Assembly (NCBI GenBank): GCA_964360065.1
Contig: CAYHTW010000003.1
Location: 1-42,852 of the forward strand
DNA length: 42,852 nucleotides
Source of the DNA: an uncultured Candidatus Saccharibacteria bacterium
Lineage (GTDB): Bacteria > Patescibacteriota > Minisyncoccia > UBA6257 > Colwellbacteraceae
Reading direction: 5' to 3'
Below are positions 19,782 through 35,858 of this stretch, piece by piece. Position 1 is the stretch's first letter, and the number at the start of each line of letters is the position of its first letter. The notes under the pieces are model-generated. The model made no database searches. It saw only the letters and a list, made by a program, of their open reading frames with translations, and was not told the DNA's origin. Both the position numbers and the translations under genes were made by a program.

Positions 19782-20751
19782 CTACTTTAGCTTTTCTACC
19801 TCAGCCTGTATAAATAAGTCCAGTTCTCCCGCCAAGACTTCATGAACTTTACTTGTCTCTTCCCCGGTCCTGTGGTCTTTAACAAGTCTGTACGGATGTA
19901 ACACATACGACCTAATCTGACTTCCCCATTCCGGCTTCACTTTGGTCTTTAGTTCAGATATTTCTTTGGCATGACGCTCTTCCATCAGTTTGAATAGCTT
20001 AGCGGTTATTATCGCCATGGCCCGTTCCCTGTTTTGAGACTGCGATCTCTCTCTTTGAGACGAAGCTGTTAATCCGGTTGGGATATGAATTAATCTCACC
20101 GAGGTCTCAACTTTATTGACGTTCTGCCCTCCAGGGCCACTGGAACGAGAAAATTCTACCTTGATATCTTCAGGGGGGATTTTCGTCTTACTCATTTCTA
20201 CTTGAGGCAACTGCGGCAGAACCTCCACTAAAGCAAAAGAGGTATGCCGTAATTGCTTTGAATCATAAGGTGAAATACGAACCAAGCGATGAACGCCATT
20301 CTCCTTTTTCAAAAAACCGTAAGCGTAATCTCCTTTCACCTCAATAGTATCGCTATCTATAAGTTTAACTTTCCAGTTCTCTTTAAGAGCATAGTTGCGA
20401 TACATTTCGAGAAGCATCATCGCCCAATCTTCTGCGTCTTTACCTCCAACGCCAGGATAGAAAGATAAAATGGCTGACAATCCGTCATACCGTCCTGTCA
20501 TCAAGGTTTTTATCTCCAACTGTCTGATTTTTTCTATAGAATCAGCTGCTCCAAACTCGGCAATAAGACTCCTTAAAATACCGGCTTCTTTATTTTTTTC
20601 TTCAGCCAAAAATCGGTTGCTTTTCCATAAATCGGGGTCAGCAACTTCAGACTCCAATTCCAGAAGTCTTTGTTTCTTGTGAACCAAGTCAAAGCCGCTC
20701 GCCTAAGCGGCAAGTTAGCTCTTCCAAATTATCTTCTTTCTCTCCCTTCAT
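19782..20751 (-). CDS. prfB: Peptide chain release factor 2 with a programmed +1 frameshift
   Basis: ATG 20751 opens MKGEKEDNLEELTCRLGERL, ending at CTT TGA C (20694-20688). The +1 frame continues DLVHKKQR... and contains GVHRLVRISPY and GPGGQNVNK. Confidence 0.95.
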
Positions 20752-20798
20752 ATTATTAATACTATGTTATCTAATTAATACTACACTATGCCACTTAA

Positions 20799-20830
20799 TA
20801 TACTATAATGCTGATCAGCATTATAGTATA
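20799..20830. promoter_or_regulatory. Perfect 32-bp palindrome, copy 1 (function unknown)
   Basis: TATACTATAATGCTGA|TCAGCATTATAGTATA. Confidence 0.7.
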
Positions 20831-20885
20831 CTTTTCTTTTATATCATCCTATTCGCTTTATTTTTCTACTCCCCTATTTATTGTG

Positions 20886-20905
20886 GCCTGCCTGCGCAGA
20901 CAGGC
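20886..20905. repeat. Short palindromic repeat GCCTGCCTGCGCAGACAGGC
   Basis: Inverted repeat just downstream of the typA stop; same family as 19763-19780. Confidence 0.7.
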
Positions 20906-20934
20906 TAGCTAGAAATGGACAACGCAACGCAGGG

Positions 20935-22749
20935 TTAATACCCTTTATTATCTTTGGCTTGCTTTCTGGCCAGTTCGGTAAGGTACGTCTTCCTAACTCT
21001 GACATTTTTAGGCGTAACTTCCACCAGCTCATCATCACCTATATAACTCAAGGCGTATTCTAAAGTCAGTTCCTTCGGTACTTCCAATTTTTCTTCAACT
21101 CCTTCATTTTTAGAACGGAAATTGTTAAGTTGTTTGGTTTTACAGACATTAACTTTCATGTCCTCGGCCTTGGCATTTTCTCCAACTACCATACCGGCAT
21201 AAACAGGGACCCCCGGTCCGATAAAAAGTTGTCCGCGCCCTTGAGCAGTTGTAAGCCCATAAGAATTAGAAAGCCCCGTCTCTGAAGCCACAATAGAACC
21301 GTGCTCCGATGATCTAAATTCTCCTTTGTATTCTTCATAACCCGCGAAAAGAGGGTTCATAATGCCCATACCCCTAGTGAGTGTAAGAAACTCGTTCCTG
21401 ATGCCAATTAAACCCCTAGTAGGAACGGAGAACTCCATAATAGTAGTAACCCCATCAACTTTCATATCTTTCATAACGCCTAGACGTTTTCCCAAAAGCT
21501 CTATGGCAGTACCCGCGTAATCACTGGGGACTTCCACGGTTAATAATTCCATAGGTTCCAATTTTTTGCCGTTTTCTTCTTTAAAGATAACCTGGGGCTT
21601 GGAGACTTCTAGCTCAAATCCCTCACGCCTCATTTTTTCTATAAAAATAGAAAGGTGAAGTTCTCCACGGCCAGCTACTGTCCAGCGGTCGGCCGAATCA
21701 GCCTGGCTGACCGCAAGAGCCACGTCCGTCTCCATCTCTTTCTGCAATCTCTCATTTAAGTTTCTAGAAGTGGTTTTGTCGCCATCCTGCCCCATAAAAG
21801 GAGAGGTATTAACCGCAAAAGTCATTTTAATAGTGGGCTCATCAATTTTGATGGATGGTAATGCTATCGGATTTTCTAAATCAGCTATAGTTTCACCTAT
21901 AGAAACATCTGGGATACCTCCGATAGCCACAATATCTCCAGCTTGAGCTTCTTCCGCATCAATTCTGCCTAGACCGCTAAAAAGGAGAAGTGAACTTAAT
22001 TGAACTTTTCTAATTGACCTGTCTCTAGCAATATGGGCTACCCACATCCCCTTCTTTAGAGTACCTGAATATAACCTGCCGATGGCAAGCTTGCCTTTAT
22101 AATTATCATTAACCAGGTTCACCGTTAACATCTGCAAAGGAGCCGTAAGGTTTACTTGAGGCGGCTGAATATAGTTCACGACTGTGTCAAAAAGAGGCGT
22201 TACGTTTTCCATTACGCTCAAGTCCGGTGTGAGGCCTGCCTTACCCTGAACCGCCGAAGCGTAAATGACCGGGAAGTCTATCTGCTGTTCGTTCGCGCCC
22301 AACTCAAAAAAAAGATTATAAGTCTGGTCTAAAGCCCACTCGGGCCTAGCATCGTTTCTATCGATTTTATTAACCACTACTATAATTCTGTGTCCGGCCT
22401 GAATTGCCTTACGAAGCACGAATTTAGTCTGAGGCATCGGACCTTCTTTGGCGTCTATCAAAAGAATAACGCCGTCCACCATACGCATAATACGCTCTAC
22501 CTCTCCTCCGAAATCGGCGTGTCCGGGAGTGTCAACAATATTAATCTTTACTCCTTTATAGTTCACCGAAGCATTCTTGGAAAAAATAGTAATCCCCCTC
22601 TCTTTCTCCAGTTCGTTGGAGTCCATAATAAGCTCCTGCGGGCCGTCGGATTTCATCTTGAAATTATCCGATTGCTTCAAAAGCGAATCGACGAGGGTCG
22701 TCTTCCCATGATCCACGTGGGCTATGATGGCTATATTCCTAATATCCAT
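20935..22749 (-). CDS. typA: Translational GTPase TypA/BipA
   Basis: [46 protein letters not shown] and [12 protein letters not shown] 22749 preferred. Confidence 0.96.
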
Positions 22750-22843
22750 TGCTTTAAACAAAAGCGGCTGGTGTGTTGCCCAACCGCAGCAAAGCTAAAT
22801 TACCATTTTATTAGGTAATTGGTCAATAAATGAATCTTACTTA

Positions 22844-22919
22844 TGGAGCCAGCGAGAGGAATCGAACCTCCGACCTTTGCTTTACGAAAGCACTGCTCTG
22901 CCGACTGAGCTACGCTGGC
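22844..22919 (-). tRNA. tRNA-Thr(CGT)
   Basis: Reverse strand GCCAGCGTAGCTCAG...TTCGTAA...GGTTCGATTCC...CGCTGGCTCCA; CCA encoded. Confidence 0.95.
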
Positions 22920-22964
22920 AGCGAAATAAGGTTAACCCGAGTGCTTCAAATTTGAAATAGAGCC

Positions 22965-23390
22965 TTACTTACCTTCTATTAGGGCTTTCTCCTCTTCATA
23001 AATTCTACGTCTTAGCTCCGAAGTGGAATAACAGTGGTCTCTGGTATTGAAATAGTTTTCAATAGGCAAATCATGGCCAGTAAAAAGCTTACCTTCCCAG
23101 TCGGCTCCAAGAATACGGATATTTATGTCTAACTTGTTCTCTTTGAGAAGCTTGTAGAGATCCGTTTCGGTGTCATATACGATTATCTCATCAATGTATT
23201 TGATGCCCTTTAAAATTATGAGTCGCTCCTCCAGAGACATAATAGGCTTGTTTTTCCCTGTCCTATCCAGACTCGGGTCGGAGTGTAACCCCACTATCAG
23301 ATAATCACAGACTTTTCTGCACTCCTGAAACATAAGAATATGCCCGGCGTGACAGAGATCAAAGGCTCCGCAAGTAAATCCATTTTTCAT
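22965..23390 (-). CDS. Cytidylyltransferase, TagD-like
   Basis: GAFDLCHAGH (HIGH-like), LIVGL.SD, ER, G.DW and STS.LR. Confidence 0.85.
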   Translation of the reverse strand: MKNGFTCGAFDLCHAGHILMFQECRKVCDYLIVGLHSDPSLDRTGKNKPIMSLEERLIILKGIKYIDEIIVYDTETDLYKLLKENKLDINIRILGADWEGKLFTGHDLPIENYFNTRDHCYSTSELRRRIYEEEKALIEGK

Positions 23391-23396
23391 GTTGGC

Positions 23397-24098
23397 CTAC
23401 TTTTGTATCGTGATCCCCTTGATTACTACTGGTGTCAGAGGCCTGTCATTACTATCTCGTTTTACATTAGCTATGGCATCCACCACGTCCTGTCCGGAAA
23501 CAACATGCCCGAAAATCGTATAACTGTTTGGAAGCGGATAATCAGCGGTCATAATAAAAAATTGTGAACCGTTGGTGTTAGGACCGGCGTTAGCCATAGC
23601 TACCACACCCTTTTTGTAGCCGGCTTTATACGAAGCAGTTGCAGGATTTAATTCATCAGCAAACTTATAGCCTGGGCCGCCTGTGCCGTTACCGTTTGGA
23701 TCGCCTCCTTGAATCATGAATCCTGGAATAACACGATGAAACGTCAGGCCGTTATAAAATCCTTGCTCTGTAAGTTTCGTGAAATTCGCCACGGTCTTCG
23801 GCGCGTCCGCCTGGTAAAACTCTATGACGATTTTACCCATGCTGGTATCCAAAGTAGCTCTCGACAAGTTTACTTGAGGCTGATTACTGGTCGGTGTCGT
23901 ATTTGTATTGTTGCTATTCATGCTTGTATTGGTGTTGTTGATTTGGTCTGTACTACTCTGGCTGGTATCTTCGGACCCACTAGTAAAATTATTTATATTT
24001 GTAGTAGATTCTACTGCAGATTGATTAGAAACGAGATAGTAACCTACGAAAAGAAGCACTATGACTAAAACTATACCTATAGACCAAATTTGTTTCAT
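23397..24098 (-). CDS. Membrane-anchored cyclophilin-type peptidyl-prolyl isomerase
   Basis: FHRVIPGFMIQGGDP and AMANAGPNTNGSQFFI; N-terminal TM with an S/T/N-rich linker. Confidence 0.95.
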   Translation of the reverse strand: MKQIWSIGIVLVIVLLFVGYYLVSNQSAVESTTNINNFTSGSEDTSQSSTDQINNTNTSMNSNNTNTTPTSNQPQVNLSRATLDTSMGKIVIEFYQADAPKTVANFTKLTEQGFYNGLTFHRVIPGFMIQGGDPNGNGTGGPGYKFADELNPATASYKAGYKKGVVAMANAGPNTNGSQFFIMTADYPLPNSYTIFGHVVSGQDVVDAIANVKRDSNDRPLTPVVIKGITIQK

Positions 24099-24185
24099 TT
24101 ATTACTTTTAACATTAATCTTACAACAGAGTAAAAAACGAGTCTACTGAGCCTCTGTTTGAGTAGTCGCCACCTTATTTTACTAC

Positions 24186-24259
24186 TGGAGCGGGCGAAGG
24201 GAATCGAACCCTCACTTTAACCTTGGGAAGGTTACGTACTGCCACTATACTACGCCCGC
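24186..24259 (-). tRNA. tRNA-Gly(CCC)
   Basis: Reverse strand GCGGGCGTAGTATAG...TTCCCAA...GGTTCGATTCC...CGCCCGCTCCA. Confidence 0.95.
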
Positions 24260-24303
24260 TGTTACCTCAAACGAAGCCATAATAACACGAGGCGACTTCC
24301 GTT

Positions 24304-24981
24304 TTAAACACTGAACACTAAAAGGCCCAAAGCTCCCAAAAGCAAAGGGCCAAAAAGATAAGTGCCCACTGTTAAGATAATACCCGCTACGAGTATTGGC
24401 ATACCTAAGGTTGTGTAAGACTCTTTGAAAAAGATTCTTTTAATTATAGAAATCAATATAGTAGCAATGAAGGTAGCCGGTATCAGAACCACGAACCATG
24501 GCCAGCCTACAAGCAAGGCAACAATAAAACCTACCTTTATCTCTCCTTCTTTAAAAAACCTGGGGTTATATTTCTCCAATAGTTTCAGTAAAACATAGAA
24601 GACCGAAGCGCAGAGGAGGGCGAGCGCTGCACCTAAAATGAACCTACCCCAGGAGTAGTAAAGAAAATATCCCAAGTGCCCTTCAAAAAAACGCTTGAAA
24701 GGTTTCATGAAAAATGGCAAATTGGCCAGGACCGTACTGTCCAGAGGACTGTTAAGCAATGCCTTAGAAAGAGTATTGGAGGCGAAAATATAATATTGCA
24801 TTACGGAAAGCAGTAAAGGATAGATTAATCTCATGGCCACAGTCCCCCAAAAAACCATCTTTAGCTTGGAATCGCTGAAACCGACAACCAAGTAATAGGC
24901 TAGAATAAAGTAAATAAGACCGGCTAAGGCGAGAAAAAATAACGGAAAGAACGGAAGTAATTGCAAAAAATTAAAATTCAT
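24304..24981 (-). CDS. Polytopic membrane protein whose C-terminus loosely resembles A24 prepilin peptidase
   Basis: Several TM segments; GEIKVGFIVALLVGWP resembles GD.KL...LG...GW. Confidence 0.6.
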   Translation of the reverse strand: MNFNFLQLLPFFPLFFLALAGLIYFILAYYLVVGFSDSKLKMVFWGTVAMRLIYPLLLSVMQYYIFASNTLSKALLNSPLDSTVLANLPFFMKPFKRFFEGHLGYFLYYSWGRFILGAALALLCASVFYVLLKLLEKYNPRFFKEGEIKVGFIVALLVGWPWFVVLIPATFIATILISIIKRIFFKESYTTLGMPILVAGIILTVGTYLFGPLLLGALGLLVFSV

Positions 24982-24993
24982 TTAAATACCCTA

Positions 24994-25281
24994 TTAGTCG
25001 GAAACCTGATTGCCCTGCTTCGGTACGACTATAATAAGTTTTTCTCCTGGAAGCCTGACATTAAATCTGGCCCTTAATTCTTTTTCTAAATTCCTGGGGT
25101 CAGCGAAATACTCTATTTGAGACTTCAAGTTATTATTGTCCGACTCCACTACATCTTTTTCTGATTTAAGTTCTGATAATCTTGAGCTAGCATCGCCCGC
25201 CTCCAGACTTATTTTATAAATCTGGTAACCGAAAAGAATAAAAAGGGCTAAAAAAATAGAATAAACTAAATAATTCCTCAC
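24994..25281 (-). CDS. Septum formation initiator (FtsB/DivIC-like)
   Basis: TM, coiled coil, then LEKELR.RFN...PGE. Confidence 0.8.
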   Translation of the reverse strand: MRNYLVYSIFLALFILFGYQIYKISLEAGDASSRLSELKSEKDVVESDNNNLKSQIEYFADPRNLEKELRARFNVRLPGEKLIIVVPKQGNQVSD

Positions 25282-25290
25282 CTTTAAAGT

Positions 25291-27036
25291 TTACCTCTTT
25301 AAGAGCTCCTTGAAAACTTGAGGAGAGACCGAAACTCGCCCGGCTTCTTTAAGCCTTTTCTTACCTTCTTTCTGCTTCTTCCACAATTTCATCTTTCTTG
25401 TGCGATCACCGCTATTCTTACCGAAGTCGCCTAAAGCCTTCTTCAGGGCCGGAATCGTTTCACGAGCTACAATCCTGCCGCTAGCTGAGGCTTGGATAGC
25501 CTGAGTGAATTGCTGTTTGGGCAAGAGTTCTTTAAGCCTTTCCACCGTTTTCCTGGCGACAGATTCAACGTCGTCCTGGAAAACTACCCGTGAAAGACCA
25601 GGCACCATATCTCCTGCTACAGTCACATCCAGTCTTTTTACCCTAGCAAAACGATAATCAGAGAACTCGTAACTAAAAGAAGCAAACCCCGAAGAAATAG
25701 ATTTTATTCTATCGTCAAAGTCAGAGATAAGATCACTTAATGGCAGGGCGGCTGTAAGGATGACTTTTTCTCCCCTGGTCTCCGTACGAATTTCGCTCAT
25801 CCTAAAGATATCTTTGAGTTTTAAAATGCTTCCTAGATAAGTCATCGGAGAGAGTATGGTGACTTTTACCATCGGTTCCATTGTTGAAACGTAATCGTCG
25901 GGGAAGTCTTTTGGATTTTCAATTGTTCTCCATTCGCCCAAAGCGCTTTTAACCTTGTACGCCACTGATGGAAAACTGTTTACCACTCTGATATTAAACT
26001 CCCTCTCTAACCTCTGCGTCACTATTTCAAAGTGCAACCGACCTAGGAAACCACATTGGAAACCCCTACCCAAGGCATCGCTTGTAGTTGGAATAATAGA
26101 AAAAGAGGAATCGTGGAGCCGTAGTTTATATATGGCTACCTTTAGATTTTCGTAATCATCTCCCTCGTCTGGATAGAGGGCCACAAAAACTACTGGCGAG
26201 GGCGACTGGAATCCAGGTAGGGCTTGCTCCCCTATAGTATCTCCTACTCTGACAACGCCTGGGTCTTTTATACCTGTAGCTATATAGCCTATCTCTCCTG
26301 ATCTAATAACATCTTCGGCTTTTAATTCAGGTTTAAAGAAACCAATTTCTTTTATTTTGAAATCTACTTTGGCTTCAATTAATCTGGCACTCGTCTGCGT
26401 TTTAAATTCACCGTTAAAAACTCTCACAAAGGCCAGAACTCCTTTGTGTTCGTCATACAAAGAACTAAAAACTAAAGCTGCCCTGACTTTTGTTTCCTTA
26501 GGGTCAGGAAACTTTCTAATAACCTCCAGCAGCAGTTCTCTCACTCCCTCTCCGGTTTTCCCGGAAACTTTAAATATTTCTTCCTCGCCAGTTTCCAGTA
26601 AATCTGCTAAATCTTTAACTGCCTGCTCAACCTGCTCGCTTGAGGCAATATCCACTTTGCTCACCGCTCCAATAAACTTTAGTTCGGCTTTTCTAGCACT
26701 TTCAAGATTAGCTAAAGTTTGCGCCTGAATACCCTGAGTGGCGTCTACTAAAAGTATGGCCCCTTCAACGGCTTTTAAGGATCTCGAAACTTCGTAAGAA
26801 AAATCCGAGTGCCCCGGAGTATCGATAAGATTCAAAATACAACCTTCAAAGAACATCCGCACTGGAGCCATCTTTATAGTGATACCTCTTTCCCGCTCCA
26901 GATCCAGAGCATCCAAATATTGAGCCTTCATTTTGTGAGGCGGCACGGTCCCAGTCACTTCCAGCATTCTGTCAGCCAAAGTGGATTTGCCGTGGTCTAT
27001 ATGGGCGGTTATTACGAAGTTTCTTATTTTATCCAT
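25291..27036 (-). CDS. lepA: Elongation factor 4 (LepA)
   Basis: IRNF.I.AHIDHGKSTLADR, ERERGITIK, GF.CGFLG.LH and KL..KQKEGKKR. ATG 27036 preferred. Confidence 0.95.
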   Translation of the reverse strand: MDKIRNFVITAHIDHGKSTLADRMLEVTGTVPPHKMKAQYLDALDLERERGITIKMAPVRMFFEGCILNLIDTPGHSDFSYEVSRSLKAVEGAILLVDATQGIQAQTLANLESARKAELKFIGAVSKVDIASSEQVEQAVKDLADLLETGEEEIFKVSGKTGEGVRELLLEVIRKFPDPKETKVRAALVFSSLYDEHKGVLAFVRVFNGEFKTQTSARLIEAKVDFKIKEIGFFKPELKAEDVIRSGEIGYIATGIKDPGVVRVGDTIGEQALPGFQSPSPVVFVALYPDEGDDYENLKVAIYKLRLHDSSFSIIPTTSDALGRGFQCGFLGRLHFEIVTQRLEREFNIRVVNSFPSVAYKVKSALGEWRTIENPKDFPDDYVSTMEPMVKVTILSPMTYLGSILKLKDIFRMSEIRTETRGEKVILTAALPLSDLISDFDDRIKSISSGFASFSYEFSDYRFARVKRLDVTVAGDMVPGLSRVVFQDDVESVARKTVERLKELLPKQQFTQAIQASASGRIVARETIPALKKALGDFGKNSGDRTRKMKLWKKQKEGKKRLKEAGRVSVSPQVFKELLKR

Positions 27037-27067
27037 AATTATCAACCGAGATTCTACGCTACAATAC

Positions 27068-27099
27068 TATACTATAATACTGATCAGTATTATAGTATA
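27068..27099. promoter_or_regulatory. Perfect 32-bp palindrome, copy 2 (function unknown)
   Basis: TATACTATAATACTGA|TCAGTATTATAGTATA. Confidence 0.7.
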
Positions 27100-27120
27100 C
27101 TTGATGATTTTTATATTAAA

Positions 27121-29175
27121 TCACATCTTTTCTAGGGTAAGATCTATTATCAACCGTGACGGTATAGTATCGGTTTTATAGTGATAAATAAAGTCATTGG
27201 ACTCGGCCCACTTGTAACCAGGTGGTGTTTCTACGATGTAATCAAAGCTGGAATCCACTCCGGATTGCTTATCTAAAACAAACTGAAACTTAGCCCCATG
27301 GATTAAATTTACTCTTCTCGTGCTCTGGTAAGTTTCATCCAACTCTTTAGATTTCCCCGCCGCAATATTAAACCACGTTCCAAAGACAGCTTTGCCATTT
27401 TCTTCATAAGAATAAGCGTTAAATTCTTTTAATTGTTGCTCGGTGCTTTCCACCGCCGCTAAATCAGGATCAGTAAGGTATTTAACTGACTTATAATTCA
27501 CCAAAGGCGTCACGGTTTTCGGCGTATTCCCGGCCAGAGCTGTCAGTCTGGACCCGGGTAAAGTAAAAACTTTAAGAAAGTTGATGTTAGCAACCCGATA
27601 CCAGCTTTGTTTCTGATTTTGTCCATTATGGACCCTTATGATTTTCAGATTGTCGGTAATAAAACCACGCTCATCGATTTTGGAAACCAACTGCACTTGT
27701 TGATTCATAAAGATGTCTGTTCTCCCGCCTGCCACATTCGTATTTACCACAGCTAGATAATCACCGTTCCAATTGGAGGCTATGGCGTAGGCTTCACCGC
27801 TAAAACTAAGCAATTTTACTATATTTTGTAGTTTCTGGTCTTTAAAATAAAATTTAATGTCTTTATTGCTAAGCCTATAACCTATAGCTTCTTCCAGGGT
27901 TCTTTTCTCGGATTTGTTTAAAGAGCTTAATTTTTCAATCAGCTTTGGCAGAATAAATTTCATAATCTTTTTGGGATTCTGGCCCGGAATATTGTCTCGG
28001 CCAGCTTCCATCTGATACTGCGCCTGCTCTAGAAAGTTTTTATCGTTCAGGATTAAACCGTATTCGGGCATTTCTATGGGGCCAGTAACCAGAAGAAAAT
28101 CTTGTATTATTTTCAGATTTACGGCTATTACTCCTTGAAATTTAATTCCTGGATCCTCGTAAACCGATGACTCTTCTATAAACTGAATAGTTTTTTTAGC
28201 CGAATCCGGGAAATTAAAGAACCAGTTGGCATCTCTCGCTCTCCAAGTCCCTGTTATACCCTGTAATTGTTTGGGCGGAACAATATTCAAATCCAAGAAC
28301 CTGTCAGGGCGATAAATATCATCAACGCTAATATTTTTAACGCGGCCGTTACCGACAGTCATATCTGCATAACTGCCTACAAATCCCCCGCTGGGCCTGA
28401 TTTCAGAAGGATTTTCAAAAAAAGCCAAGAGATGCATATCCCCCGGCTGGTCTAGTATACTTATTAAAGCGTCCAGACCTTCTATCGCCTTGCCTGCTTT
28501 AAGGTTGAAATCAACATATTGAGCCGAATTTTCAGCAGATAGGACTCCCGTTCCAGAGACAATATTCCGCAAGTCGCCAGCTACGCTGTTCACGATTGCG
28601 ATATTACCTCTTAAACGCCTCAAAAGCTCCAGTGTATTACCATCATCAAACCCCAAAACCATTCCAAGTCCCGAAGACTTGAGTTGCCTAATCACCTCAT
28701 TAAGATCTCCTAGGGTAGCAGTAAGATTGGCTACCTTAGAGATAATCTCTGGAATCTGTTTTAAAATCGGCACGAATGAAAAAATATCCACTATGCCATA
28801 CATATCTATTGCTTCCGTATTAAACTGAATGGACTTACCTGCGACATTCGAGTCAAAACCAGAAAACTGCGTGCCAGCAAACTTGAGATTGTCGTAAATA
28901 GCGCTAACAGCCAAGAGCGATTTGCTTTTCAAATCTAAAAGATACCAACCGGAAAAGACGCCGATTAAAAACAACGCAATAGTTAGAAATAATAGTGATT
29001 TTTTGATAAGACGCAGTTTACTTTCTTGGATAATAAACTCTTTGCTAACAATCCCGTGCTCCGGAGCGAATGATTTCGCTCCTTCGCTTTTTAAGAACTC
29101 CCTCGCTTTCACATCCATGGGATGCTTCACATCAGAAAGAACTGGATGAATATTTTTTTTGGAACGAGGTTTCAT
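27121..29175 (-). CDS. DUF4012-like membrane-anchored protein
   Basis: N.SE.RPSGGF.GS, RDANW..NFP.SA, VVN.N..G and KQSG. Confidence 0.8.
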   Translation of the reverse strand: MKPRSKKNIHPVLSDVKHPMDVKAREFLKSEGAKSFAPEHGIVSKEFIIQESKLRLIKKSLLFLTIALFLIGVFSGWYLLDLKSKSLLAVSAIYDNLKFAGTQFSGFDSNVAGKSIQFNTEAIDMYGIVDIFSFVPILKQIPEIISKVANLTATLGDLNEVIRQLKSSGLGMVLGFDDGNTLELLRRLRGNIAIVNSVAGDLRNIVSGTGVLSAENSAQYVDFNLKAGKAIEGLDALISILDQPGDMHLLAFFENPSEIRPSGGFVGSYADMTVGNGRVKNISVDDIYRPDRFLDLNIVPPKQLQGITGTWRARDANWFFNFPDSAKKTIQFIEESSVYEDPGIKFQGVIAVNLKIIQDFLLVTGPIEMPEYGLILNDKNFLEQAQYQMEAGRDNIPGQNPKKIMKFILPKLIEKLSSLNKSEKRTLEEAIGYRLSNKDIKFYFKDQKLQNIVKLLSFSGEAYAIASNWNGDYLAVVNTNVAGGRTDIFMNQQVQLVSKIDERGFITDNLKIIRVHNGQNQKQSWYRVANINFLKVFTLPGSRLTALAGNTPKTVTPLVNYKSVKYLTDPDLAAVESTEQQLKEFNAYSYEENGKAVFGTWFNIAAGKSKELDETYQSTRRVNLIHGAKFQFVLDKQSGVDSSFDYIVETPPGYKWAESNDFIYHYKTDTIPSRLIIDLTLEKM

Positions 29176-29241
29176 GAATATAAAGAATTATATATTAGAA
29201 ACGTAACGAAAGCTTATAATTTCATACCGCCGGCAACCTCA

Positions 29242-29270
29242 TTGACATTTCGCCTTTTTTGTTGTATAAT
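29242..29270 (+). promoter_or_regulatory. Consensus sigma70 promoter, cassette 1
   Basis: TTGACA-17 bp-TATAAT, a perfect match. Confidence 0.9.
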
Positions 29271-29344
29271 GCAAGAATCCTGAAAAGGATGCCTGTTATT
29301 TAATAATTAATCGCAGTTAGTCCAAAAGATTAATTGCCACATGT

Positions 29345-29704
29345 ATGACTAAATCGCAGAAAGCCATCCGCGACAAGTGGTTTGAGCTTCGGCAGACGAT
29401 TCGCAACGAAATAGCTTTTCGTAAGAATCCTCTTCTCTGGGGCAAACTTATCCTTGATATCGTGAGTAATAATTCCAGATTCCCCGTCAAATACAAATGG
29501 CCGATGATCCACGTGGTCATCGAAGAGTTTGAAAAAACTCCCGTGAGTCACTTCGACTCGGATTATCTCGGTAAGATGTACCACGATGCCTCTATAAGGC
29601 AGTATCAAGGATATGGGAAGAAAGCTGTGTATCTGAGAAATGGCTTTCGAAGTCTTCTCTCGAAAGTCGAAGACAGGCTTAATAATATGCCTGGTCTCGG
29701 TTGA
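29345..29704 (+). CDS. Orphan hypothetical protein, cassette 1 (119 aa)
   Basis: ATG ORF between a perfect promoter and a terminator. Confidence 0.7.
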   Translation: MTKSQKAIRDKWFELRQTIRNEIAFRKNPLLWGKLILDIVSNNSRFPVKYKWPMIHVVIEEFEKTPVSHFDSDYLGKMYHDASIRQYQGYGKKAVYLRNGFRSLLSKVEDRLNNMPGLG

Positions 29705-29753
29705 ACCTTCCTGGTTCACGCACTTAATCCCCTCACCTAGTCGCGTGTGACGT

Positions 29754-29781
29754 AAAAGAGAGCTCTAACAAGCTCTCTTTT
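29754..29781 (+). terminator. Intrinsic terminator, cassette 1
   Basis: AAAAGAGAGCT-ctaaca-AGCTCTCTTTT. Confidence 0.85.
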
Positions 29782-29808
29782 CAATCAACATTCGAAAAAA
29801 TAACTATA

Positions 29809-29837
29809 TTGACAAAAAGACGATTATATAGTACTAT
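29809..29837 (+). promoter_or_regulatory. Sigma70 promoter, cassette 2
   Basis: TTGACA-17 bp-TACTAT. Confidence 0.75.
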
Positions 29838-29982
29838 TTTAGGTACAGTCATCGAGGGATTTATCTCTTGTTGGACCGTAAAGGTCGAACTAAGAGCGAG
29901 TCTCCCGGGTTCGCTCTTTTATAAATTAATTTTACGTTCGCGAGAACTGCCATTAGGCAATAAACGCGAATCGTCGCGACAT

Positions 29983-30339
29983 ATGTATGAACCAAGCACT
30001 ATCTATACTCTACAAAATAGAGCTATGGGCCTCATTAAAAATGGGGGGTCTCCGAGAAAGTATCTTGACGTTGTTATGCAACTTAAGTTCTTTCCGGATC
30101 AATGGGAACTCTGCCAAAAGTTGGTGCGTAAAGCTTATGAAGAGCTATGTAGGAATCACAATGGTGATTTCGAAACGTATCGCCTTCTCTGTTATACGGG
30201 GGTTATGTTTTTTGCCAAGTCCCCGACAAGAGACCGGGCTATTGCTTTATTCGCCTTCGAGAAAATGAAAGAAACGAAATCGAAGTCGAAACATCAGCGA
30301 GTCGTCCTTGAGTATTGGTTGATGCTCAAAAGAAGCTAA
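29983..30339 (+). CDS. Orphan hypothetical protein, cassette 2 (118 aa); paralog of cassette 3
   Basis: ATG 29983 (MYEPST...). The track's TTG start at 29809 is the -35 box. Confidence 0.72.
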   Translation: MYEPSTIYTLQNRAMGLIKNGGSPRKYLDVVMQLKFFPDQWELCQKLVRKAYEELCRNHNGDFETYRLLCYTGVMFFAKSPTRDRAIALFAFEKMKETKSKSKHQRVVLEYWLMLKRS

Positions 30340-30363
30340 GAAGTCGCGTGAGTTAATAGACAA

Positions 30364-30398
30364 AAAATAGCGCTCCCCGCAAGGAAGAGCGCTATTTT
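30364..30398 (+). terminator. Intrinsic terminator, cassette 2
   Basis: AAAATAGCGCTC...GAGCGCTATTTT. Confidence 0.85.
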
Positions 30399-30464
30399 AT
30401 TGCGGATAGCGAGGAGTGAAACGACAAGGAGTAAGACGAACTTTCATATTTACATTTTACTCTT

Positions 30465-30493
30465 TTGACAAGAAATAAATATTATGGTATAAG
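30465..30493 (+). promoter_or_regulatory. Sigma70 promoter, cassette 3
   Basis: TTGACA-17 bp-TATAAG with a TGn extension. Confidence 0.78.
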
Positions 30494-30564
30494 TACATAA
30501 CCTGAAGCATTACTGACGGTCGAATGCTTCGTTGATCTTTAATAATTTAATTAACGTCACAACT

Positions 30565-30831
30565 ATGAAATTGCAAAGACTATTGCGATCATCGGCGCTT
30601 GCTACCCTACTCTTGAAAGAGCCGGTATACCCTCTCCGAGATTTGAGAAACGAACTCGATGCCATCATAAAAAACGATGGGGAACCAGGAAAGTATGTAG
30701 AATTGTACTACAAAATTCCTGCTTTTATGAAGAATTTAAGGAATAAATTTTTCGAGAGGATATTCCGGAAAGCAAAACGTGAAAACTGGAAAGTAGAAAA
30801 ACTTGCCGCGATCGCAAGCGAGATATATTAA
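30565..30831 (+). CDS. Orphan hypothetical protein, cassette 3 (88 aa)
   Basis: ATG 30565; shares L.N.....IKN.G.P.KY with the cassette 2 protein. Confidence 0.72.
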   Translation: MKLQRLLRSSALATLLLKEPVYPLRDLRNELDAIIKNDGEPGKYVELYYKIPAFMKNLRNKFFERIFRKAKRENWKVEKLAAIASEIY

Positions 30832-30832
30832 A

Positions 30833-30862
30833 AAATAGCACCCACTCCAATGGGTGCTATTT
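30833..30862. terminator. Terminator, probably bidirectional (cassette 3 and secA)
   Basis: AAATAGCACCCA-ctccaa-TGGGTGCTATTT. Confidence 0.82.
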
Positions 30863-30968
30863 CATTGCGGAAAACATGACGACGTCTATATTTCTTACTG
30901 CTGCCGTCCGCCTTCTCTGCCAACTGGTGGATTCGGCGGGACTCCGCTCGTCTTTACGGTACTAAACG

Positions 30969-33497
30969 TTAGCGACCATGGCAACGCTTATATTTTATTG
31001 GATGCCCACTTTGATCTTTCGCTCCGCATGGACAAGGGTCATTTCGTCCCACATCTTTAAACTCAACTTTTTTAGGTTGGGCTGCCTGTGTAGATGTTTC
31101 TACTTGAGGTAACTTCTCCAGTTTAAAAACATTTATAAAGGCCCACGATTCAAAAGTCGCAGTCATGGTGTCAAAAAGGATCTTACTTTCCCTACGGTAT
31201 TCAACGAGTGGGTCTTTCTGTCCATAAGCGCGAAGCCTGACAGACTCCACCAGAGCTTCAATGTCTTCCAAGTGGTTCATCCAGAAGAAATCCAAGACAC
31301 TCAAAGCATGGATTCTAGCAGCATTCAGATTTTCGTGGATACGCAACCTCTTACTAATCTCTTCCGTGGCCTCTTCTATACTCTTCGCCTCGAGCCCCCC
31401 CTCCTTCAAGGCTTTCTGCATCTCTTCGTGAGACAACTCGGACTTTTCTATCTTGTCAAGATACCCAAGCATCACCTCTTCCAAGAATGAAACCAAACCA
31501 TCTTTATCTATGGCATTCAAAACTCTCTGTCGTTTACCGTAGAAATTTAAGCGCTGTTTATTCAAAATATCGTCGTAATCCAATAAGTGTTTACGCATAT
31601 CAAAATTAAAACCTTCGATCTTCCCCTGGGCCTGTGAAACAGAACGGGAAACCAACTTATTCTCTATTGGCACATCTGCTGGCAGATCAAATCTCTCCAT
31701 CATATTCTTAATTCTGTCACCACCGAAGATTCTCAAGAGATCATCCTCTAAAGACAAAAAGAATTGCGAAGAACCAGGATCTCCCTGACGTCCGCTGCGG
31801 CCTCGGAGCTGGTTGTCTATGCGTCTTGCTTCGTGACGCTCTGTGCCAATAACATGGAGTCCACCGGCGTTTTTTACTTTCTCCGCTTGTTCCGCAACCG
31901 GCGGATTGCCCCCTAAGATGATGTCCACGCCACGACCAGCCATGTTGGTTGCAACGGTCACGGCTCCTTCCCTGCCAGCTTGCGCAATAATCTGACCTTC
32001 TCTCTCGTGGTTCTTGGCATTCAACATTTCGTGTGGCACTCCTTCAGCTTTAAGATAACTGGAAAGAACTTCGTTCTTCTCTATAGAAACAGTACCTATT
32101 AAGACTGGTTGACCTGCCTCATTCTTTTTCTTAACCTCACGAGCTATAGCTTTATATTTAGCATCCAGATCTTTATAGATACTGTCTGACACATCTTTCC
32201 TGACATTGGGCCTGTTGGTCGGGATAGTAATTACCTCTAAACCATAAACTTTGTGGAACTCTTCAGCTGAAGTCTGGGCAGTTCCAGTCATACCGGAAAT
32301 CTTTTTATAAAGACGAAAATAATTCTGAATAGTAATTTGAGCCAGGGTCTTAGTCTCATCCTGAATCTTAACTCCTTCTTTGGCTTCCACGGCTTGATGT
32401 ATACCGACTGACCACCTCCTGCCCACCATTAATCTTCCAGTAAACTGGTCCACTATAACGACTTCTCCGTTCCTGACCACATAGTCCCTGTCTCGTAAGA
32501 AAAGTGCCTTAGCCTTAAGACTCGCTTCTAAATAATGGACCAAGCGTAAGTTTTCCATACTGTAAAGATTTTTAACGCCGACCATCATCTCAACTTTATT
32601 AATACCCTCGTCGGTTATACTTACCGACTTTAACTTTTCGTCAACCACATAATCCTCTACTTCTTGAAGTCTGACGGCCGCTCTCGTAAAAGTCTTGTAG
32701 AACTCGGATGATTCTCTATCAGCCATGGAAATAATAAGAGGTGTACGAGCTTCATCTATTAAAATAGAGTCTACTTCGTCTATGATGGCGTAATTTAAAC
32801 CTCTCTGGACTTGATTGGTTATGTCCTGGACCAGATTGTCTCTTAAATAGTCAAAACCGAATTCGTGGTTCGTCCCATAAGTTATATCGGCCGCATAGGC
32901 TTCACGCCTCGTAATAGGCCTCAGAAACTCGGTCTGTACCAGGAAACTTCCGGTAGTGTCCCTTTCTTTGTCTATCAGGGCCTCACCATCCTGAGGGATC
33001 TTGAATGTCGGGTCATAAAGAAAAGCGCCTTCGTGAACCAAGCAGGCTACTTTGAGACCCAAAAAGTCATAGATCTGACCCATCCAAACAGCATCTCTTT
33101 TAGCCAAGTATTCATTGACTGTAATAATATGCACTCCCTTACCGGCAAGAGCATTAAGATAAATCGGAGCAGTAGAAGAAAGTGTTTTCCCTTCACCGGT
33201 AGACATTTCAGCTATCTCACCGCGGTGCAGAACTATGCCTCCCCATAACTGGACATCATAATGTCTCTGCCGCAACGTTCGCCTCGCCACTTCCCGGACT
33301 AACGCATATGCCTTAGGGAGATATTTGTCTAGATCGCCATCCTCGGTAATATATTCTTTAATAGCCAAACTTTCCTTTTTAAGTTCGTCGTCAGGCAGTT
33401 CCTTAATTCCCGCCTCCAAGGCGTTTATTTCATCAATCTGCACAGGTCGAGGACTACTATAAGAACCAAATAGGTTCTTTAAAAAACCAGGAAACAT
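30969..33497 (-). CDS. secA: Preprotein translocase SecA
   Basis: EM.TGEGKT, DEVDSILIDEARTPLIIS, ATNMAGRG.DI, RRIDNQLRGRSGRQGDPG and SEC-C motif GRNDPCPCG. Confidence 0.97.
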   Translation of the reverse strand: MFPGFLKNLFGSYSSPRPVQIDEINALEAGIKELPDDELKKESLAIKEYITEDGDLDKYLPKAYALVREVARRTLRQRHYDVQLWGGIVLHRGEIAEMSTGEGKTLSSTAPIYLNALAGKGVHIITVNEYLAKRDAVWMGQIYDFLGLKVACLVHEGAFLYDPTFKIPQDGEALIDKERDTTGSFLVQTEFLRPITRREAYAADITYGTNHEFGFDYLRDNLVQDITNQVQRGLNYAIIDEVDSILIDEARTPLIISMADRESSEFYKTFTRAAVRLQEVEDYVVDEKLKSVSITDEGINKVEMMVGVKNLYSMENLRLVHYLEASLKAKALFLRDRDYVVRNGEVVIVDQFTGRLMVGRRWSVGIHQAVEAKEGVKIQDETKTLAQITIQNYFRLYKKISGMTGTAQTSAEEFHKVYGLEVITIPTNRPNVRKDVSDSIYKDLDAKYKAIAREVKKKNEAGQPVLIGTVSIEKNEVLSSYLKAEGVPHEMLNAKNHEREGQIIAQAGREGAVTVATNMAGRGVDIILGGNPPVAEQAEKVKNAGGLHVIGTERHEARRIDNQLRGRSGRQGDPGSSQFFLSLEDDLLRIFGGDRIKNMMERFDLPADVPIENKLVSRSVSQAQGKIEGFNFDMRKHLLDYDDILNKQRLNFYGKRQRVLNAIDKDGLVSFLEEVMLGYLDKIEKSELSHEEMQKALKEGGLEAKSIEEATEEISKRLRIHENLNAARIHALSVLDFFWMNHLEDIEALVESVRLRAYGQKDPLVEYRRESKILFDTMTATFESWAFINVFKLEKLPQVETSTQAAQPKKVEFKDVGRNDPCPCGAKDQSGHPIKYKRCHGR

Positions 33498-33504
33498 TTA
33501 TCTG

Positions 33505-33816
33505 TTAAATATGTTTTTCTTTATACTTCTCAATCTCACGCTTGAGTTTATCCTTGACGGCATCTATAGCGGCGTAAGCATCGTCCGTATCTTCTTCGGC
33601 TCGGAGCACTTCATGGGGCAAGTCCAGATTAGCGTCAACGTGGAAAACGTCTCCATGTTTGTGATGCCTCGTTGACCTGCCTACCTCAACCCTGGCCTTT
33701 ATAGAGTCCTTCTGGAGGCTTCCTAAGGGCCTGTCTAAGTCATTAAACTTCTCTTCTATATAGGCTTTTAAGGCTGGGGTTAAATCTAGGTCAGTGGCTT
33801 TAATAATGATTTTCAT
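33505..33816 (-). CDS. hpf: Ribosome hibernation factor HPF/RaiA (short form)
   Basis: LTPALK.YIEEK and D.YAAID...DKL.R...KYK; ATG 33816. Confidence 0.9.
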   Translation of the reverse strand: MKIIIKATDLDLTPALKAYIEEKFNDLDRPLGSLQKDSIKARVEVGRSTRHHKHGDVFHVDANLDLPHEVLRAEEDTDDAYAAIDAVKDKLKREIEKYKEKHI

Positions 33817-33849
33817 ATCTACCATTATATTAATCCCAAGCCCCAAAAG

Positions 33850-33884
33850 CAAAGTCCCCGCCGGATTACTCCGTGGGGACTTTG
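33850..33884 (-). terminator. Hairpin terminator downstream of the micro-ORF
   Basis: CAAAGTCCCC...GGGGACTTTG; the minus strand continues CTTTT. Confidence 0.75.
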
Positions 33885-33916
33885 TATTCCGCCAGTAGAC
33901 GGATTTGAAAGAGAGT

Positions 33917-33985
33917 TTACCTCTTTCTCTTAGAAGTCTTCTTAGCTTTTTTCTTAGAAGTCTTCTTAGCTTTTTTCTTTGCCAT
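33917..33985 (-). CDS. 22-aa lysine-rich micro-protein MAKKKAKKTSKKKAKKTSKRKR
   Basis: Manual translation from ATG 33985 to TAA 33917; internal 24-bp tandem repeat; upstream TATAAT and downstream terminator. Confidence 0.7.
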   Translation of the reverse strand: MAKKKAKKTSKKKAKKTSKRKR

Positions 33986-34082
33986 TGTTTCTATAATATT
34001 TGGTTTTGGTCTGTCGACTTTCAAACCAATTTTATTTTCAAACTACATTGATATTATATAACAAATTGAATTTTAAAAACAC

Positions 34083-34091
34083 TGTGGATAA
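34083..34091 (-). promoter_or_regulatory. Single consensus DnaA box TTATCCACA
   Basis: TGTGGATAA on the + strand, intergenic. Confidence 0.45.
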
Positions 34092-34097
34092 CTTTTT

Positions 34098-34113
34098 TCC
34101 GCCAGCTGGCGGA
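34098..34113. repeat. Short palindrome TCCGCCAGCTGGCGGA
   Basis: Perfect 16-bp palindrome abutting the murB stop; related copies at 33888-33903 and 41318-41347. Confidence 0.75.
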
Positions 34114-35037
34114 CTAAAAAATTAGAATCTCTTCTTCTAGCTCTACACCAAACTTTTCTTTGACTTCTGACTTCGCGAGTTCAATAAGACTTTTTACATC
34201 TGATGCTGTCGCGCCAAAGACATTCACAATAAAATTAGGATGCTTAGGAGATATCATCGCTCCGCCGCAAGCGACTCCCTGCAACTTCGCTTCCGATAAC
34301 AAATACGCTGTCGGAACTACCGGAAATGGGTCTTGTTTGATAGGAGCTCTAAAGTCAGGATGCCCTAAATGAGGATAGTCGGCAAAAACAACATTCTTAA
34401 AGACACTGCCGACATTAAAGTGATCTAGGGGGTGTCTCTGCTTTCTATAGGCGATTCTACTCTCCACCTTTTCTTTTATCTCACTGCCAGATCCTGGAGT
34501 AAGCGTTAAGGTCGCCTCAATAATAATTTCATTCCTATCTAACTTAAAGACACTCGTCCGGTAGCCGAAGCCGCATTCCTTGCGGCATCTTTCAGTTAAC
34601 TTCATCCTTTGTGTATCAAAACTTATAATCCTTTCCACCGCATCTTTTAATTCTCCACCAAAAGCTCCGGCGTTCCCGCGCAAAGCTCCGCCGAAGGTTC
34701 CCGGCAAGCCTCCAGCCCATTCCAACCCAGAAAGATTATTTTCTACTGATAAATTAACTAGTTCCGTCATATTTACTCCGGCGCCGGCTGTGATCTTGTT
34801 GCCTACCACACCCAGATTTATAAAATCCGGTTTTAAAACTAAGCCCTCGTAATCGGCATCGCTGAAAAGAATATTCGTGCCTCCTCCTAAAATGAAAAAA
34901 GGAAGACGCCTTTTCTTGGCGTCTTCCACGGTATTAATAAGATCCTCCAAAGTTTTTGCTCTCTTGAAGAATCTGGCTTCTCCTCCGATTTTGAAACTTC
35001 CTAAATTTTTGAGCTTAACGCCAGTTTCAAAATCCAT
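34114..35037 (-). CDS. murB: UDP-N-acetylenolpyruvoylglucosamine reductase
   Basis: IGG.A, LGGGTN, GLPGT.GGA..GNAGAFG, FGYR.S.F, GS.FKN, KH.NF.VN and LE.E. Confidence 0.95.
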   Translation of the reverse strand: MDFETGVKLKNLGSFKIGGEARFFKRAKTLEDLINTVEDAKKRRLPFFILGGGTNILFSDADYEGLVLKPDFINLGVVGNKITAGAGVNMTELVNLSVENNLSGLEWAGGLPGTFGGALRGNAGAFGGELKDAVERIISFDTQRMKLTERCRKECGFGYRTSVFKLDRNEIIIEATLTLTPGSGSEIKEKVESRIAYRKQRHPLDHFNVGSVFKNVVFADYPHLGHPDFRAPIKQDPFPVVPTAYLLSEAKLQGVACGGAMISPKHPNFIVNVFGATASDVKSLIELAKSEVKEKFGVELEEEILIF

Positions 35038-35114
35038 TTATTAAAAGGGCGGTAGTGGTGACCTCCATAATTTGTTGTTAAGTGAGTGCTCGTCCTACCG
35101 CCCGGATTTATTCT

Positions 35115-35181
35115 ACCCCGTTAGAAGTAGGATATCAAAGACGTCAACCGATGTGTAAAAGCATCAGACTTCTAACTGAGC
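35115..35181. repeat. Small inverted-repeat element ACCCCGTTAGAAGT...ACTTCTAAC
   Basis: 9-bp arms GTTAGAAGT/ACTTCTAAC with an inner GATG/CATC stem. Confidence 0.55.
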
Positions 35182-35192
35182 CTACTAATAAT

Positions 35193-35858
35193 TTAAAGTT
35201 TCCTCCAGGCTACGGCTTCTCTCACATCAAATTCTCTGAAAGTCAGCCGGTGAACAAATTCCCTCGTACCCTTACTTACAAGCAATGCTTTTAGCGGATC
35301 CAGTGAAGAATTTAGCGTATCGGCCACTTCCTGGGCTTGATAAGGAGTTGGGGCAGAGATTAGAACTCGCATATTGGCCCATTTCTTGGCCCAACCGCCT
35401 CCAGTCACCATAAACTGCAATAGGGCTCCCTCCCCTATCTCACTCACCTTAGAAAAATCCACCTCGTTAGGATTGAACTTATTAAGCTCACCCTGGAGAT
35501 AAAAACCCAAATGCGATCCCCCGGAATTATAGACGTGAAACTCATTGGCTTTTTTAGCCCCCGTTAAGTTGTGGAGCTCTTCTGTCATTCTTTCTGGCAC
35601 TCCTATGTAACAATGTACTTCTTTGCCTAACTGGTGCACGGCCATTTCAAATATAAAAGGAGTGGGCAATATTCTAAAAAGATCCAAAAGCTTTCCTTTT
35701 TCTTCCGAAAAATAAGACATAGGTATCTCCATCAGAGTAAATCTCCTTCTGATAAAAAAGTGGTGTCGTATGGCGCTAGTGATAGACATCGCCGTGATTA
35801 TCCCGAGAAGACTAATAGCAATGAAAGCAATTGTGGGTGGAGTAAGATATGATTGCAT
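35193..35858 (-). CDS. Hypothetical protein with an N-terminal TM segment
   Basis: 221-aa ORF filling the gap between murB and the glycosyltransferase. Confidence 0.7.
   Translation of the reverse strand: MQSYLTPPTIAFIAISLLGIITAMSITSAIRHHFFIRRRFTLMEIPMSYFSEEKGKLLDLFRILPTPFIFEMAVHQLGKEVHCYIGVPERMTEELHNLTGAKKANEFHVYNSGGSHLGFYLQGELNKFNPNEVDFSKVSEIGEGALLQFMVTGGGWAKKWANMRVLISAPTPYQAQEVADTLNSSLDPLKALLVSKGTREFVHRLTFREFDVREAVAWRKL

Follow-up and report, generated by a model that had tools for sequence, protein, structure and literature searches.

The stretch of DNA analysed here (the window) comprises 42,852 nucleotides (nt), contig C3:1-42852, from the genome (G000; 476,501 bp in seven contigs, 43% G+C, marker-gene completeness 100%) of an ultra-small (0.48-Mb) groundwater bacterium of the Candidate Phyla Radiation (CPR)/Patescibacteria, an affiliation drawn from two proteins of the relative G012 to which one source attaches the name Candidatus Colwellbacteria. 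A 1.8-kb gap between the genes for a DUF4012 protein and for SecA is filled there by three plus-strand open reading frames (ORF1, ORF2 and ORF3), each belonging to a unit with its own promoter, leader and terminator. We propose, with a probability of about 0.5, that these units form a clade-specific, vertically inherited array in a variable DUF4012-secA slot, and that their leaders resemble those of ribosomal RNA (rRNA) operons and are of the Nus type. The units themselves are very probably real, independently transcribed and vertically inherited accessory genes; that the leaders work through Nus factors is suggested by their sequence and stands somewhat below even odds. New here are the boxA-like leader boxes, which match the boxA of the lineage's rRNA operons (rrn), and the conservation of the promoter and leader of unit 2, for which there is no Rfam family. 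We consider the finding moderately interesting rather than striking. Little is known about transcription control in CPR/Patescibacteria or about the roles of many of their clade-specific small proteins, and the locus offers a compact, testable case, with three promoters close to the E. coli consensus, a leader RNA whose conservation far outstrips that of its gene and a boxA-like site before protein-coding genes in a genome where Rho was not found.

A sequence-only reading made beforehand had described three plus-strand units inside a minus-strand run, each with a promoter of the form TTGACA-17-nt spacer (TTGACA-17), an ORF of 88-119 amino acids (aa) and its own terminator, and all of this was borne out. 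The promoters, all on the plus strand, lie at 29242..29270 (TTGACA-17-TATAAT, 12 of 12 consensus positions), 29809..29837 (TTGACA-17-TACTAT) and 30465..30493 (TTGACA-17-TATAAG, with TG two bases 5' of the -10 hexamer). A scan of both strands of the 476,501 bp, which tolerated two mismatches in all and no more than one of them in the -35 hexamer, found 115 sites, a density of roughly one for every 8 kb of strand. Just two of them were perfect, one being that at 29242. The other perfect TTGACA-17-TATAAT site, at C3:70720 (-), is outside the window. Three such sites on one strand within 1.3 kb, each just 5' of an ORF, are therefore not due to chance. A consensus scan at the level of the window showed by itself no enrichment (8 sites versus 5.5 expected), and it missed promoter 3, which was recovered by the genome-wide scan, because it demands a T at the last position.

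The promoters are followed by ORF1 (29345..29704, 119 aa), ORF2 (29983..30339, 118 aa) and ORF3 (30565..30831, 88 aa), all on the plus strand and all without a Shine-Dalgarno sequence 5' of the start codon. Each ORF is followed in turn by a perfect inverted repeat of 11-12 nt with an A-run before it and a T-run after it, and for none of the three terminator stretches did any of 200 shuffled sequences fold as well. Terminator 1 (29754..29781, +; folding z-score -5.1) has an 11-bp stem with a 5' A-tract and a 3' T-tract, terminator 2 (30364..30398, +; z -4.1) has perfect arms of 12 bp and is terminator-like on both strands, and terminator 3 (30833..30862, +; z -4.5), located between the convergent ORF3 and secA, probably serves both genes. 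The relatedness of the non-coding parts that had been noted from the sequence also stood. The motif AGTCGCGTG, situated between stop codon and terminator in units 1 (29739..29747, +) and 2 (30342..30350, +), is found in just these two copies, whether the window is considered (expected number 0.09) or the entire genome, and terminators 2 and 3 have the sequence GCTATTT(T/C)ATTGCGGA in common at 15 of 16 bases, although ATTGCGGA alone is not special, since this 8-mer is present 17 times in the genome. A similar AATAGCA...TGCT hairpin is found 3' of the ORF3-type gene in the relatives G012 and G044. The ATGTATG reported at the first two starts is present and is trivial, the first ATG of unit 1 not being kept in the congener G001. 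With a promoter, leader and terminator for each unit and with motifs in common, the description of the units as modular was upheld.

The leader of unit 2 (29838..29940, +; z -4.2) contains predicted hairpins at 29854-29869, 29870-29890 and 29892-29918, a box, AAAGGTCGA, at 29880-29888 (+), which is invariant in an alignment of five lineages, and a boxA-like box at 29911-29931 (+). Over 122 nt, promoter 2 and leader together (29809-29930) share 92.6% identity with the ORF2-type unit of G044, whereas the remaining interval of these two genomes gives only short aligned stretches of 70-88% and their SecA proteins are 72% identical. ORF2 is ~45% identical to closer relatives with this type of leader, such as P0008. 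As the leader is thus far better conserved than its protein, it is likely to be a functional cis-acting RNA. A strict pattern of the leader was found in seven metagenome and three genome contigs of the public collections, and in 10 of 10 cases an ORF of the ORF2 family lay downstream at constant distance, one of these ORFs running off its contig and one being interrupted by a masked stretch. The alignment of the five lineages shows next to no variation in AAAGGTCGA, in the sequence CTCYTTTATAA or in the outer stem of hairpin 3, and hairpin 3 is retained through one-sided changes. The conservation ends directly after the boxA-like box, and the 50-60 nt preceding the ATG cannot be aligned among the lineages. 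An Infernal model of the leader (R1) scored 81-109 bits in G000, G044, G008 and G012 (4 of the 53 family genomes) and gave a weak match in G067, adjoining secA and 5' of a possible distant relative of ORF2. In the Rfam search, only five transfer RNAs in the window reached the gathering score, and nothing overlapped 29838-29940 at E values up to 10. Two further weak matches of R1 were observed, at C1:42944-43028 (+) of the studied genome (E 8.7e-4) and at G058:C18:32782-32861 (+) (E 1.6e-3).

These features might also mark out a free-standing small RNA of ~80 nt, encoded where the unit-2 leader stands and transcribed from the promoter at 29809, with a start near 29844, through three hairpins to the hairpin and U-run that end near 29922. 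ORF2 would then be expressed only if polymerase read through or if the gene had a weak promoter to itself. The conserved block indeed halts exactly past the hairpin and TTTTATAAATTAAT, leaving the unalignable stretch before the ATG outside; the identity of 92.6% is confined to the element and does not extend to its flanks; hairpin 3, followed by four U residues, resembles an intrinsic terminator; and the element matches no Rfam family. It nevertheless always lies 5' of a gene of the ORF2 family at equal distance (10/10 pattern matches and 4/4 strong model matches), which is exactly what a cis leader predicts, and the promoter scans showed no other consensus promoter in 29931-29983. Moreover, since a hairpin stands directly before TCTTTTAAAA in the organism's own rRNA leader, the terminator-like appearance may be the local form of a hairpin followed by boxA. 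A separate RNA gene is thus quite improbable.

The reading of the leaders as Nus-type leaders is based on their comparison with rRNA-operon leaders. Those of the relatives consist of a TTGACA-17 promoter, a hairpin and boxA, and the studied genome's own rrn leader, at about C4:1-240 (-) at a contig end, likewise has TTGACA-17-GATAAT, a hairpin and the boxA CCGGTCTTTTAAAATCATAGC, the hairpin being followed immediately by TCTTTTAAAA. The 16S gene is absent from the assembly. A gapless boxA matrix was trained on seven rRNA-leader boxA sites of relatives only, and 952,708 genome positions were ranked with it; it replaced a 20-column boxA profile used with nhmmer, which returned local fragments only. 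The box of unit 2 (29911) took rank 4, those of unit 3 (30532) and unit 1 (29293) took ranks 61 and 158, and the organism's own rrn leader took rank 8. The name boxA, given to the leader box in the sequence-only reading, was the most useful lead of that reading. Compared with 752 intergenic control segments, 12 of the 17 unit leaders from five genomes exceeded the 95th percentile and 6 of the 17 the 99th, but the 17 leaders are mutually related and these counts therefore overstate their independence. By eye, the boxes of units 2 and 3 each match 10 of the 11 positions of the published consensus GYTCTTTAANA, which is gamma-proteobacterial (PMC5725501). The boxes are located 33-72 nt 5' of the start codon. 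Whether the unit box changes together with the rrn boxA of its own genome was looked at in genus g46, where the unit box of G067 differs from the rrn leaders of G065 and G066, the rrn leader of G067 itself being unassembled.

Leader 1 (29277..29344, +; z -3.3) has hairpins at 29277-29290 and 29313-29337 on either side of a boxA-like box at 29293-29312. In leader 3 (30500..30564, +), the loop and 3' side of a hairpin at 30504-30530 contain GGTCGA, and a boxA-like box follows at 30532-30551; the ORF3-type units of G012 and G044 show the same leader layout. The structure of leader 3 is not significant on its own (z -1.6, with 19 of 200 shuffles as good). The earlier statement that all three leaders are structured is therefore backed by significant folding for units 1 and 2 and not for unit 3.

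Like an rRNA-operon leader, the unit leaders have a strong promoter followed by a hairpin and by a box matching the lineage's rRNA boxA, and this box stands in the predicted transcribed leader beside a boxB-like hairpin, as in the organism's own rrn leader. NusB and NusA, the two Nus factors searched for, are both encoded (NusB, E 1.1e-32; NusA_N, E 5.6e-29). Nus-factor boxA sites exist 5' of protein-coding genes elsewhere, for example of E. coli suhB (PMC5725501). By mimicking the rRNA-operon leader with strong promoter, hairpin and boxA-like box, the unit leaders would be expected to load a NusB/NusE-NusA complex onto RNA polymerase. The loaded polymerase might then pass the terminator-like leader hairpin, or the output or translation of the three genes might be tied to a control shared with rRNA synthesis. 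The differences from known leaders of this type are that the genes encode orphan small proteins rather than rRNA, Nus or translation factors, that Rho was not found and that an additional invariant box, AAAGGTCGA, is present. A more far-reaching proposal, which we regard as unlikely, is that an apparently Rho-less sub-clade took the rRNA-operon module together with an invariant AAAGGUCGA box as a portable leader for small basic proteins, the ~90-nt leader of unit 2 being a new cis-regulatory RNA that would sense the availability of Nus factors, or of another factor, at a terminator-like hairpin and would so couple the proteins to ribosome synthesis. Should the leader work via Nus factors, boxA control of protein-coding genes would reach a distant Rho-less lineage, and a portable expression module would be at hand for these uncultured bacteria; should it not be Nus-based, the invariant AAAGGTCGA box would point to an unknown regulator.

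Besides the mutual relatedness of the leaders, several observations weigh against the Nus-type reading. Among the ten best matches of the boxA matrix, eight lie inside ORFs and are probably due to chance, such matches arising because boxA is short and AT-rich, and a regular expression for the box was not enriched genome-wide (2 versus 3.05 expected, and 9 versus 14.6). The box of unit 1 and those of its relatives are without the C at boxA position 4, a position at which mutations eliminate function in E. coli (PMC5725501). Two models of Rho (Rho_RNA_bind and TIGR00767) had no match in this genome, complete by its markers, and the classical anti-Rho role of boxA is therefore without a target here. 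RNAalifold detected changes on both sides in 0 of the 16 pairs of leader 2, and nothing like AAAGGTCGA was seen in the rRNA leaders compared, so that an rRNA-like leader does not explain this box. The function proposed for the proteins draws on fold likeness, with Z values for ORF2 under the level that counts as specific for helical repeats. Lastly, no RNA run is listed among the runs containing the stretch.

The main rival starts from the boxes themselves. According to it, the leader boxes are not Nus sites; they serve a dedicated regulator as operator or RNA-binding site, or act as an AU-rich enhancer of translation, and the array is part of a regulon of small clade-specific genes with high expression. 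In units 2 and 3 the AT-rich box has a companion, (A)AGGTCGA(A/G), which is also present in leaders of unrelated small membrane-protein genes on contigs C1 and C6, and the succession of (A)AGGTCGA(A/G) and then the AT-rich box, with a promoter at most 150 nt upstream, occurs at five sites versus 0.13 expected (15 simulated genomes). The invariance of AAAGGTCGA in the five lineages of the unit-2 leader, despite a changing pairing context, and the lack of Shine-Dalgarno sequences would fit this explanation as well. No candidate regulator, however, is linked to the locus, the distance between promoter and box varies from ~25 to ~105 nt and hence fits a classical operator poorly, and the AT-rich box scores very high with a matrix derived from rRNA leaders alone. 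We consider such a regulator or AU-rich element unlikely, although more probable than the free-standing RNA, and the reading of the units as mobile or conflict-related genes, discussed below, is the least likely.

To return to the array as an inherited set of genes, its distribution was followed in the family, where SecA is present in 51 of the 53 genomes. DNA past the 3' end of secA was taken from 31 genomes, to which three further loci were added to give 34, and a DUF4012 gene was inside the 7 kb taken in 20 of these 34. The DUF4012-secA interval varies from ~1 to 6 kb in length. In most genera it consists of a Bac_transf sugar transferase gene, a GT4 glycosyltransferase gene and assorted small genes (L047, L050, L052, L053, L055, L058, L063 and L040; Pfam checked for the G044 pair only), and the interval of the studied genome has neither the sugar transferase nor the glycosyltransferase. 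Among 35 secA-flank intervals, family hidden Markov models (HMMs) recognised the ORF1 type in 5, the ORF2 type in 5 and the ORF3 type in 3, and intervals with family members were restricted to G000, G001 of the same genus, G008, G012 and G044. The SecA proteins of the last four are 93%, 72%, 70% and 72% identical to that of G000, respectively, and the five carriers are the most SecA-similar genomes among those with flanking DNA. The ORF2 profile as such matches 6 of the 53 family genomes and 5 of 30 genera.

The row of units before secA comprises an ORF1-type, an X-type, a second ORF1-like, an ORF2-type and an ORF3-type unit in G044, an ORF1-like, an ORF2-type and an ORF3-type unit in G012, and an ORF1-type and an ORF2-type unit in G008. 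The ORF2-type gene of G008 (L022 5231-5637) is broken by a masked stretch (X) and can be read over part of its length only. In G001, unit 1 is conserved with 91% DNA identity, its promoter being TTGACA-17-TATAGT and its ORF1 88% identical in protein (dN/dS 0.40), and nothing there matches units 2 and 3 at the level of DNA; in their stead are an inverted ORF1-like gene, an X-type gene of 159 aa and a relative of ORF2 with 34% identity. A TTGACA-17 promoter precedes all 16 plus-strand units of the five genomes as well as the inverted unit of G001, and genes of the three types are opposite to the strand of secA everywhere save for this inverted ORF1-type copy. The ORFs are retained between genomes as protein although their DNA can scarcely be aligned. 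Since the order ORF1-type, ORF2-type, ORF3-type, secA is repeated in three genera (G000, G012 and G044), the array appears to be old and vertically inherited within one sub-clade, and the pre-secA order shared by relatives with two to five units points to an ancestral assembly followed by loss and gain of units. We conclude that the array is ancestral to the sub-clade, with a constant slot and order, lineage-specific loss and gain and fast protein divergence. Comparing the interval across relatives, a check proposed with the sequence-only reading, thus revealed a locus that is not invariant, its content differing in G001 and rising to five units in G044. The idea of a duplicating unit was not upheld, as no unit is a duplicate of another in its DNA and each of the three proteins comes from a different family.

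The variability of the slot might also be taken as the mark of a mobile or conflict-related hot spot, with the units as its cargo encoding effectors, anti-defence proteins or toxin-like proteins, as had been suggested from the sequence. Content does differ between the congeners, G001 having other units where units 2 and 3 find no DNA match; ORF2 is 34% identical between them versus 93% for SecA; the interval ranges from ~1 to 6 kb across the family; and ORF3 matches, in both cases below threshold, an excisionase PHROG (E 0.018) and a protein model of an integrative and conjugative element (ICE; 17.7 bits versus a cut-off of 40). Yet PADLOC gave 0 matches for the three proteins, and PHROGs and NCBIfam gave nothing above threshold. 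The array has no flanking repeat, no recombinase was found among the scanned flank genes, which are of the housekeeping kind, and order and position are the same in three genera. The units are single genes and not toxin-antitoxin pairs, and the contigs of four groundwater DNA runs carry the identical array sequence without structural variants; the contigs compared over 28000-32000 are short, with no joint within the array. The suggestion of effectors or toxins is therefore not retained, cargo of this kind being very improbable. The array is neither invariant nor recently duplicating and shows no sign of mobility.

The products of ORF1, ORF2 and ORF3 are soluble proteins of very small clade-restricted orphan families. 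All three are basic (isoelectric points 9.9, 9.6 and 9.9), hydrophilic and devoid of a hydrophobic segment, and the earlier designation as orphans was confirmed, with no assignment in Pfam (ORF2 gave 0 families at E up to 1), PHROG, PADLOC or NCBIfam. The paralogy that had been claimed for them was retained in part. ORF2 and ORF3 appear to have ~39 N-terminal residues in common: BLASTP aligned them with 10 of 28 residues identical (E 8e-5, single comparison), and hhalign of the ORF2 profile (15 sequences) against the ORF3 family gave a probability of 52% over 38-39 columns with three ORF3 sequences and of 74.5% (E 2.7e-5, 39 columns) with four. It is residues of about 21-60 of ORF3 that resemble the N-terminus of ORF2, and ORF3 would have just the first helical hairpin of ORF2. 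The loose match reported between ORF1 and the other two was not reproduced (BLASTP nothing or E 0.19, hhalign probability <0.2%), and by these comparisons ORF1 seems unrelated to both. The ORF1 family and the X family (G001 159 aa, G044 153 aa) were also compared and, at an hhalign probability of 1.2%, are not related on present evidence.

The ORF2 profile retrieved 17 matches from 1.84 billion representatives, 13 of them short ORF2-type proteins, including the window's own in truncated form; the other four, long repeat proteins (ZinT repeats, pentatricopeptide repeat-like and two with tetratricopeptide repeats, TPR), were rejected as additive low-complexity or repeat matches. Word-index searches returned two proteins for ORF2, six for the ORF1 profile and two for ORF3, including the window's own, with one other cluster in the index of 5.8 billion proteins. 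Members of the ORF1 family are known from G001, G003, G008, G012 and G044. The relatives of ORF3 are P0020 (74-75% identical) and those in G012 and G044. AlphaFold with family alignments gave confident all-helical predictions, with six helices in three hairpins for ORF2 (pLDDT 89, pTM 0.82) and five helices for ORF1 (pLDDT 84, pTM 0.78). In VIA-align, 105-108 residues of the ORF2 model were aligned with Acl4 (4ynw, Z 9.7, the top natural TPR), Sti1 TPR2B (3upv, Z 8.8) and PilW (2vq2, Z 8.2), followed by PilW/PilF 2fi7 (Z 7.6); the top Z overall, 11.1, belongs to designed repeats, and all are below ~13, values that the tool regards as common and unspecific for helical repeats. Foldseek reached E-values no better than 0.18 for ORF2 and 0.33, without a fold match, for ORF1, and the ESM Atlas gave a best score of 0.79 for ORF2 and no usable match for ORF1. 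Complex prediction of ORF2 with ORF3 returned scores of 0.00 and 0.00 and no verdict. Being small, basic and helical, and including one that is TPR-like, the proteins would, at a guess, be adaptors or nucleic-acid-associated factors rather than enzymes.

Some known systems resemble the array in part. Phage morons are promoter-gene-terminator units inserted between phage genes, and the units described here are similarly self-contained, with their own promoter and terminator and on the strand opposite to that of their neighbours; unlike morons, they are not in a prophage (the flanks are lepA, DUF4012, secA, hpf and murB, with no PHROG above chance), and their position and order are conserved across genera. 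Integron cassettes are promoterless and carry attC sites next to an integron integrase. The array shares with them a row of small unrelated ORFs whose content varies between relatives, whereas every unit here has a consensus promoter, the hairpins are ordinary terminators with T-runs, and no integrase was found among the scanned flank genes, no search having been aimed at attC sites or integrase. Domains with three TPRs (Sti1 TPR2B, Acl4, PilW/PilF) are similar to the predicted model of ORF2 in its six helices and three hairpins, and differ in that ORF2 has no Pfam TPR match, a Foldseek E of 0.18 and Z values unspecific for helical repeats. In contrast to defence and toxin-antitoxin systems, PADLOC matches number 0, and every gene comes with a promoter and a terminator to itself instead of being part of a two-gene operon.

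The array is embedded in a region, 16429-35858, in which the minus strand carries every long ORF apart from the three plus-strand units. It is flanked on the left by the DUF4012 protein gene (27121..29175, -; 684 aa; Pfam PF13196, E 1.2e-16) and on the right by secA (30969..33497, -; Pfam SecA domains). The neighbouring genes encode, by Pfam, the housekeeping proteins LepA, DUF4012, SecA, the S30AE ribosome hibernation factor (hpf) and MurB, and the lepA-DUF4012-...-secA synteny is retained across the family. An ORF of 129 aa, antisense to ORF1, is present at 29330-29719 (-), and its mirror frame is likewise open in G001; it was treated as a by-product of the codon usage of ORF1 and not as a gene.

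The scan for promoter, hairpin and box that had been suggested from the sequence recovered the pattern and showed that it is not unique to the locus, being used by other single-gene units. The (A)AGGTCGA(A/G) box followed by the AT-rich box occurs 3' of TTGACA-type promoters before small membrane-protein genes on C1 and C6, and further single-gene units with promoter, hairpin and both boxes were recognised at C6:13056-8785, C1:9705-9307 and C1:137508-136951, all on the minus strand. Their small protein products are hydrophobic at the N-terminus. From the excess of such sites over expectation, the succession of promoter, hairpin and box appears to be a general style for single small genes in this organism. 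Two of the ORFs on C6, 12914-12582 and 9117-8785, of 110 aa each, are identical.

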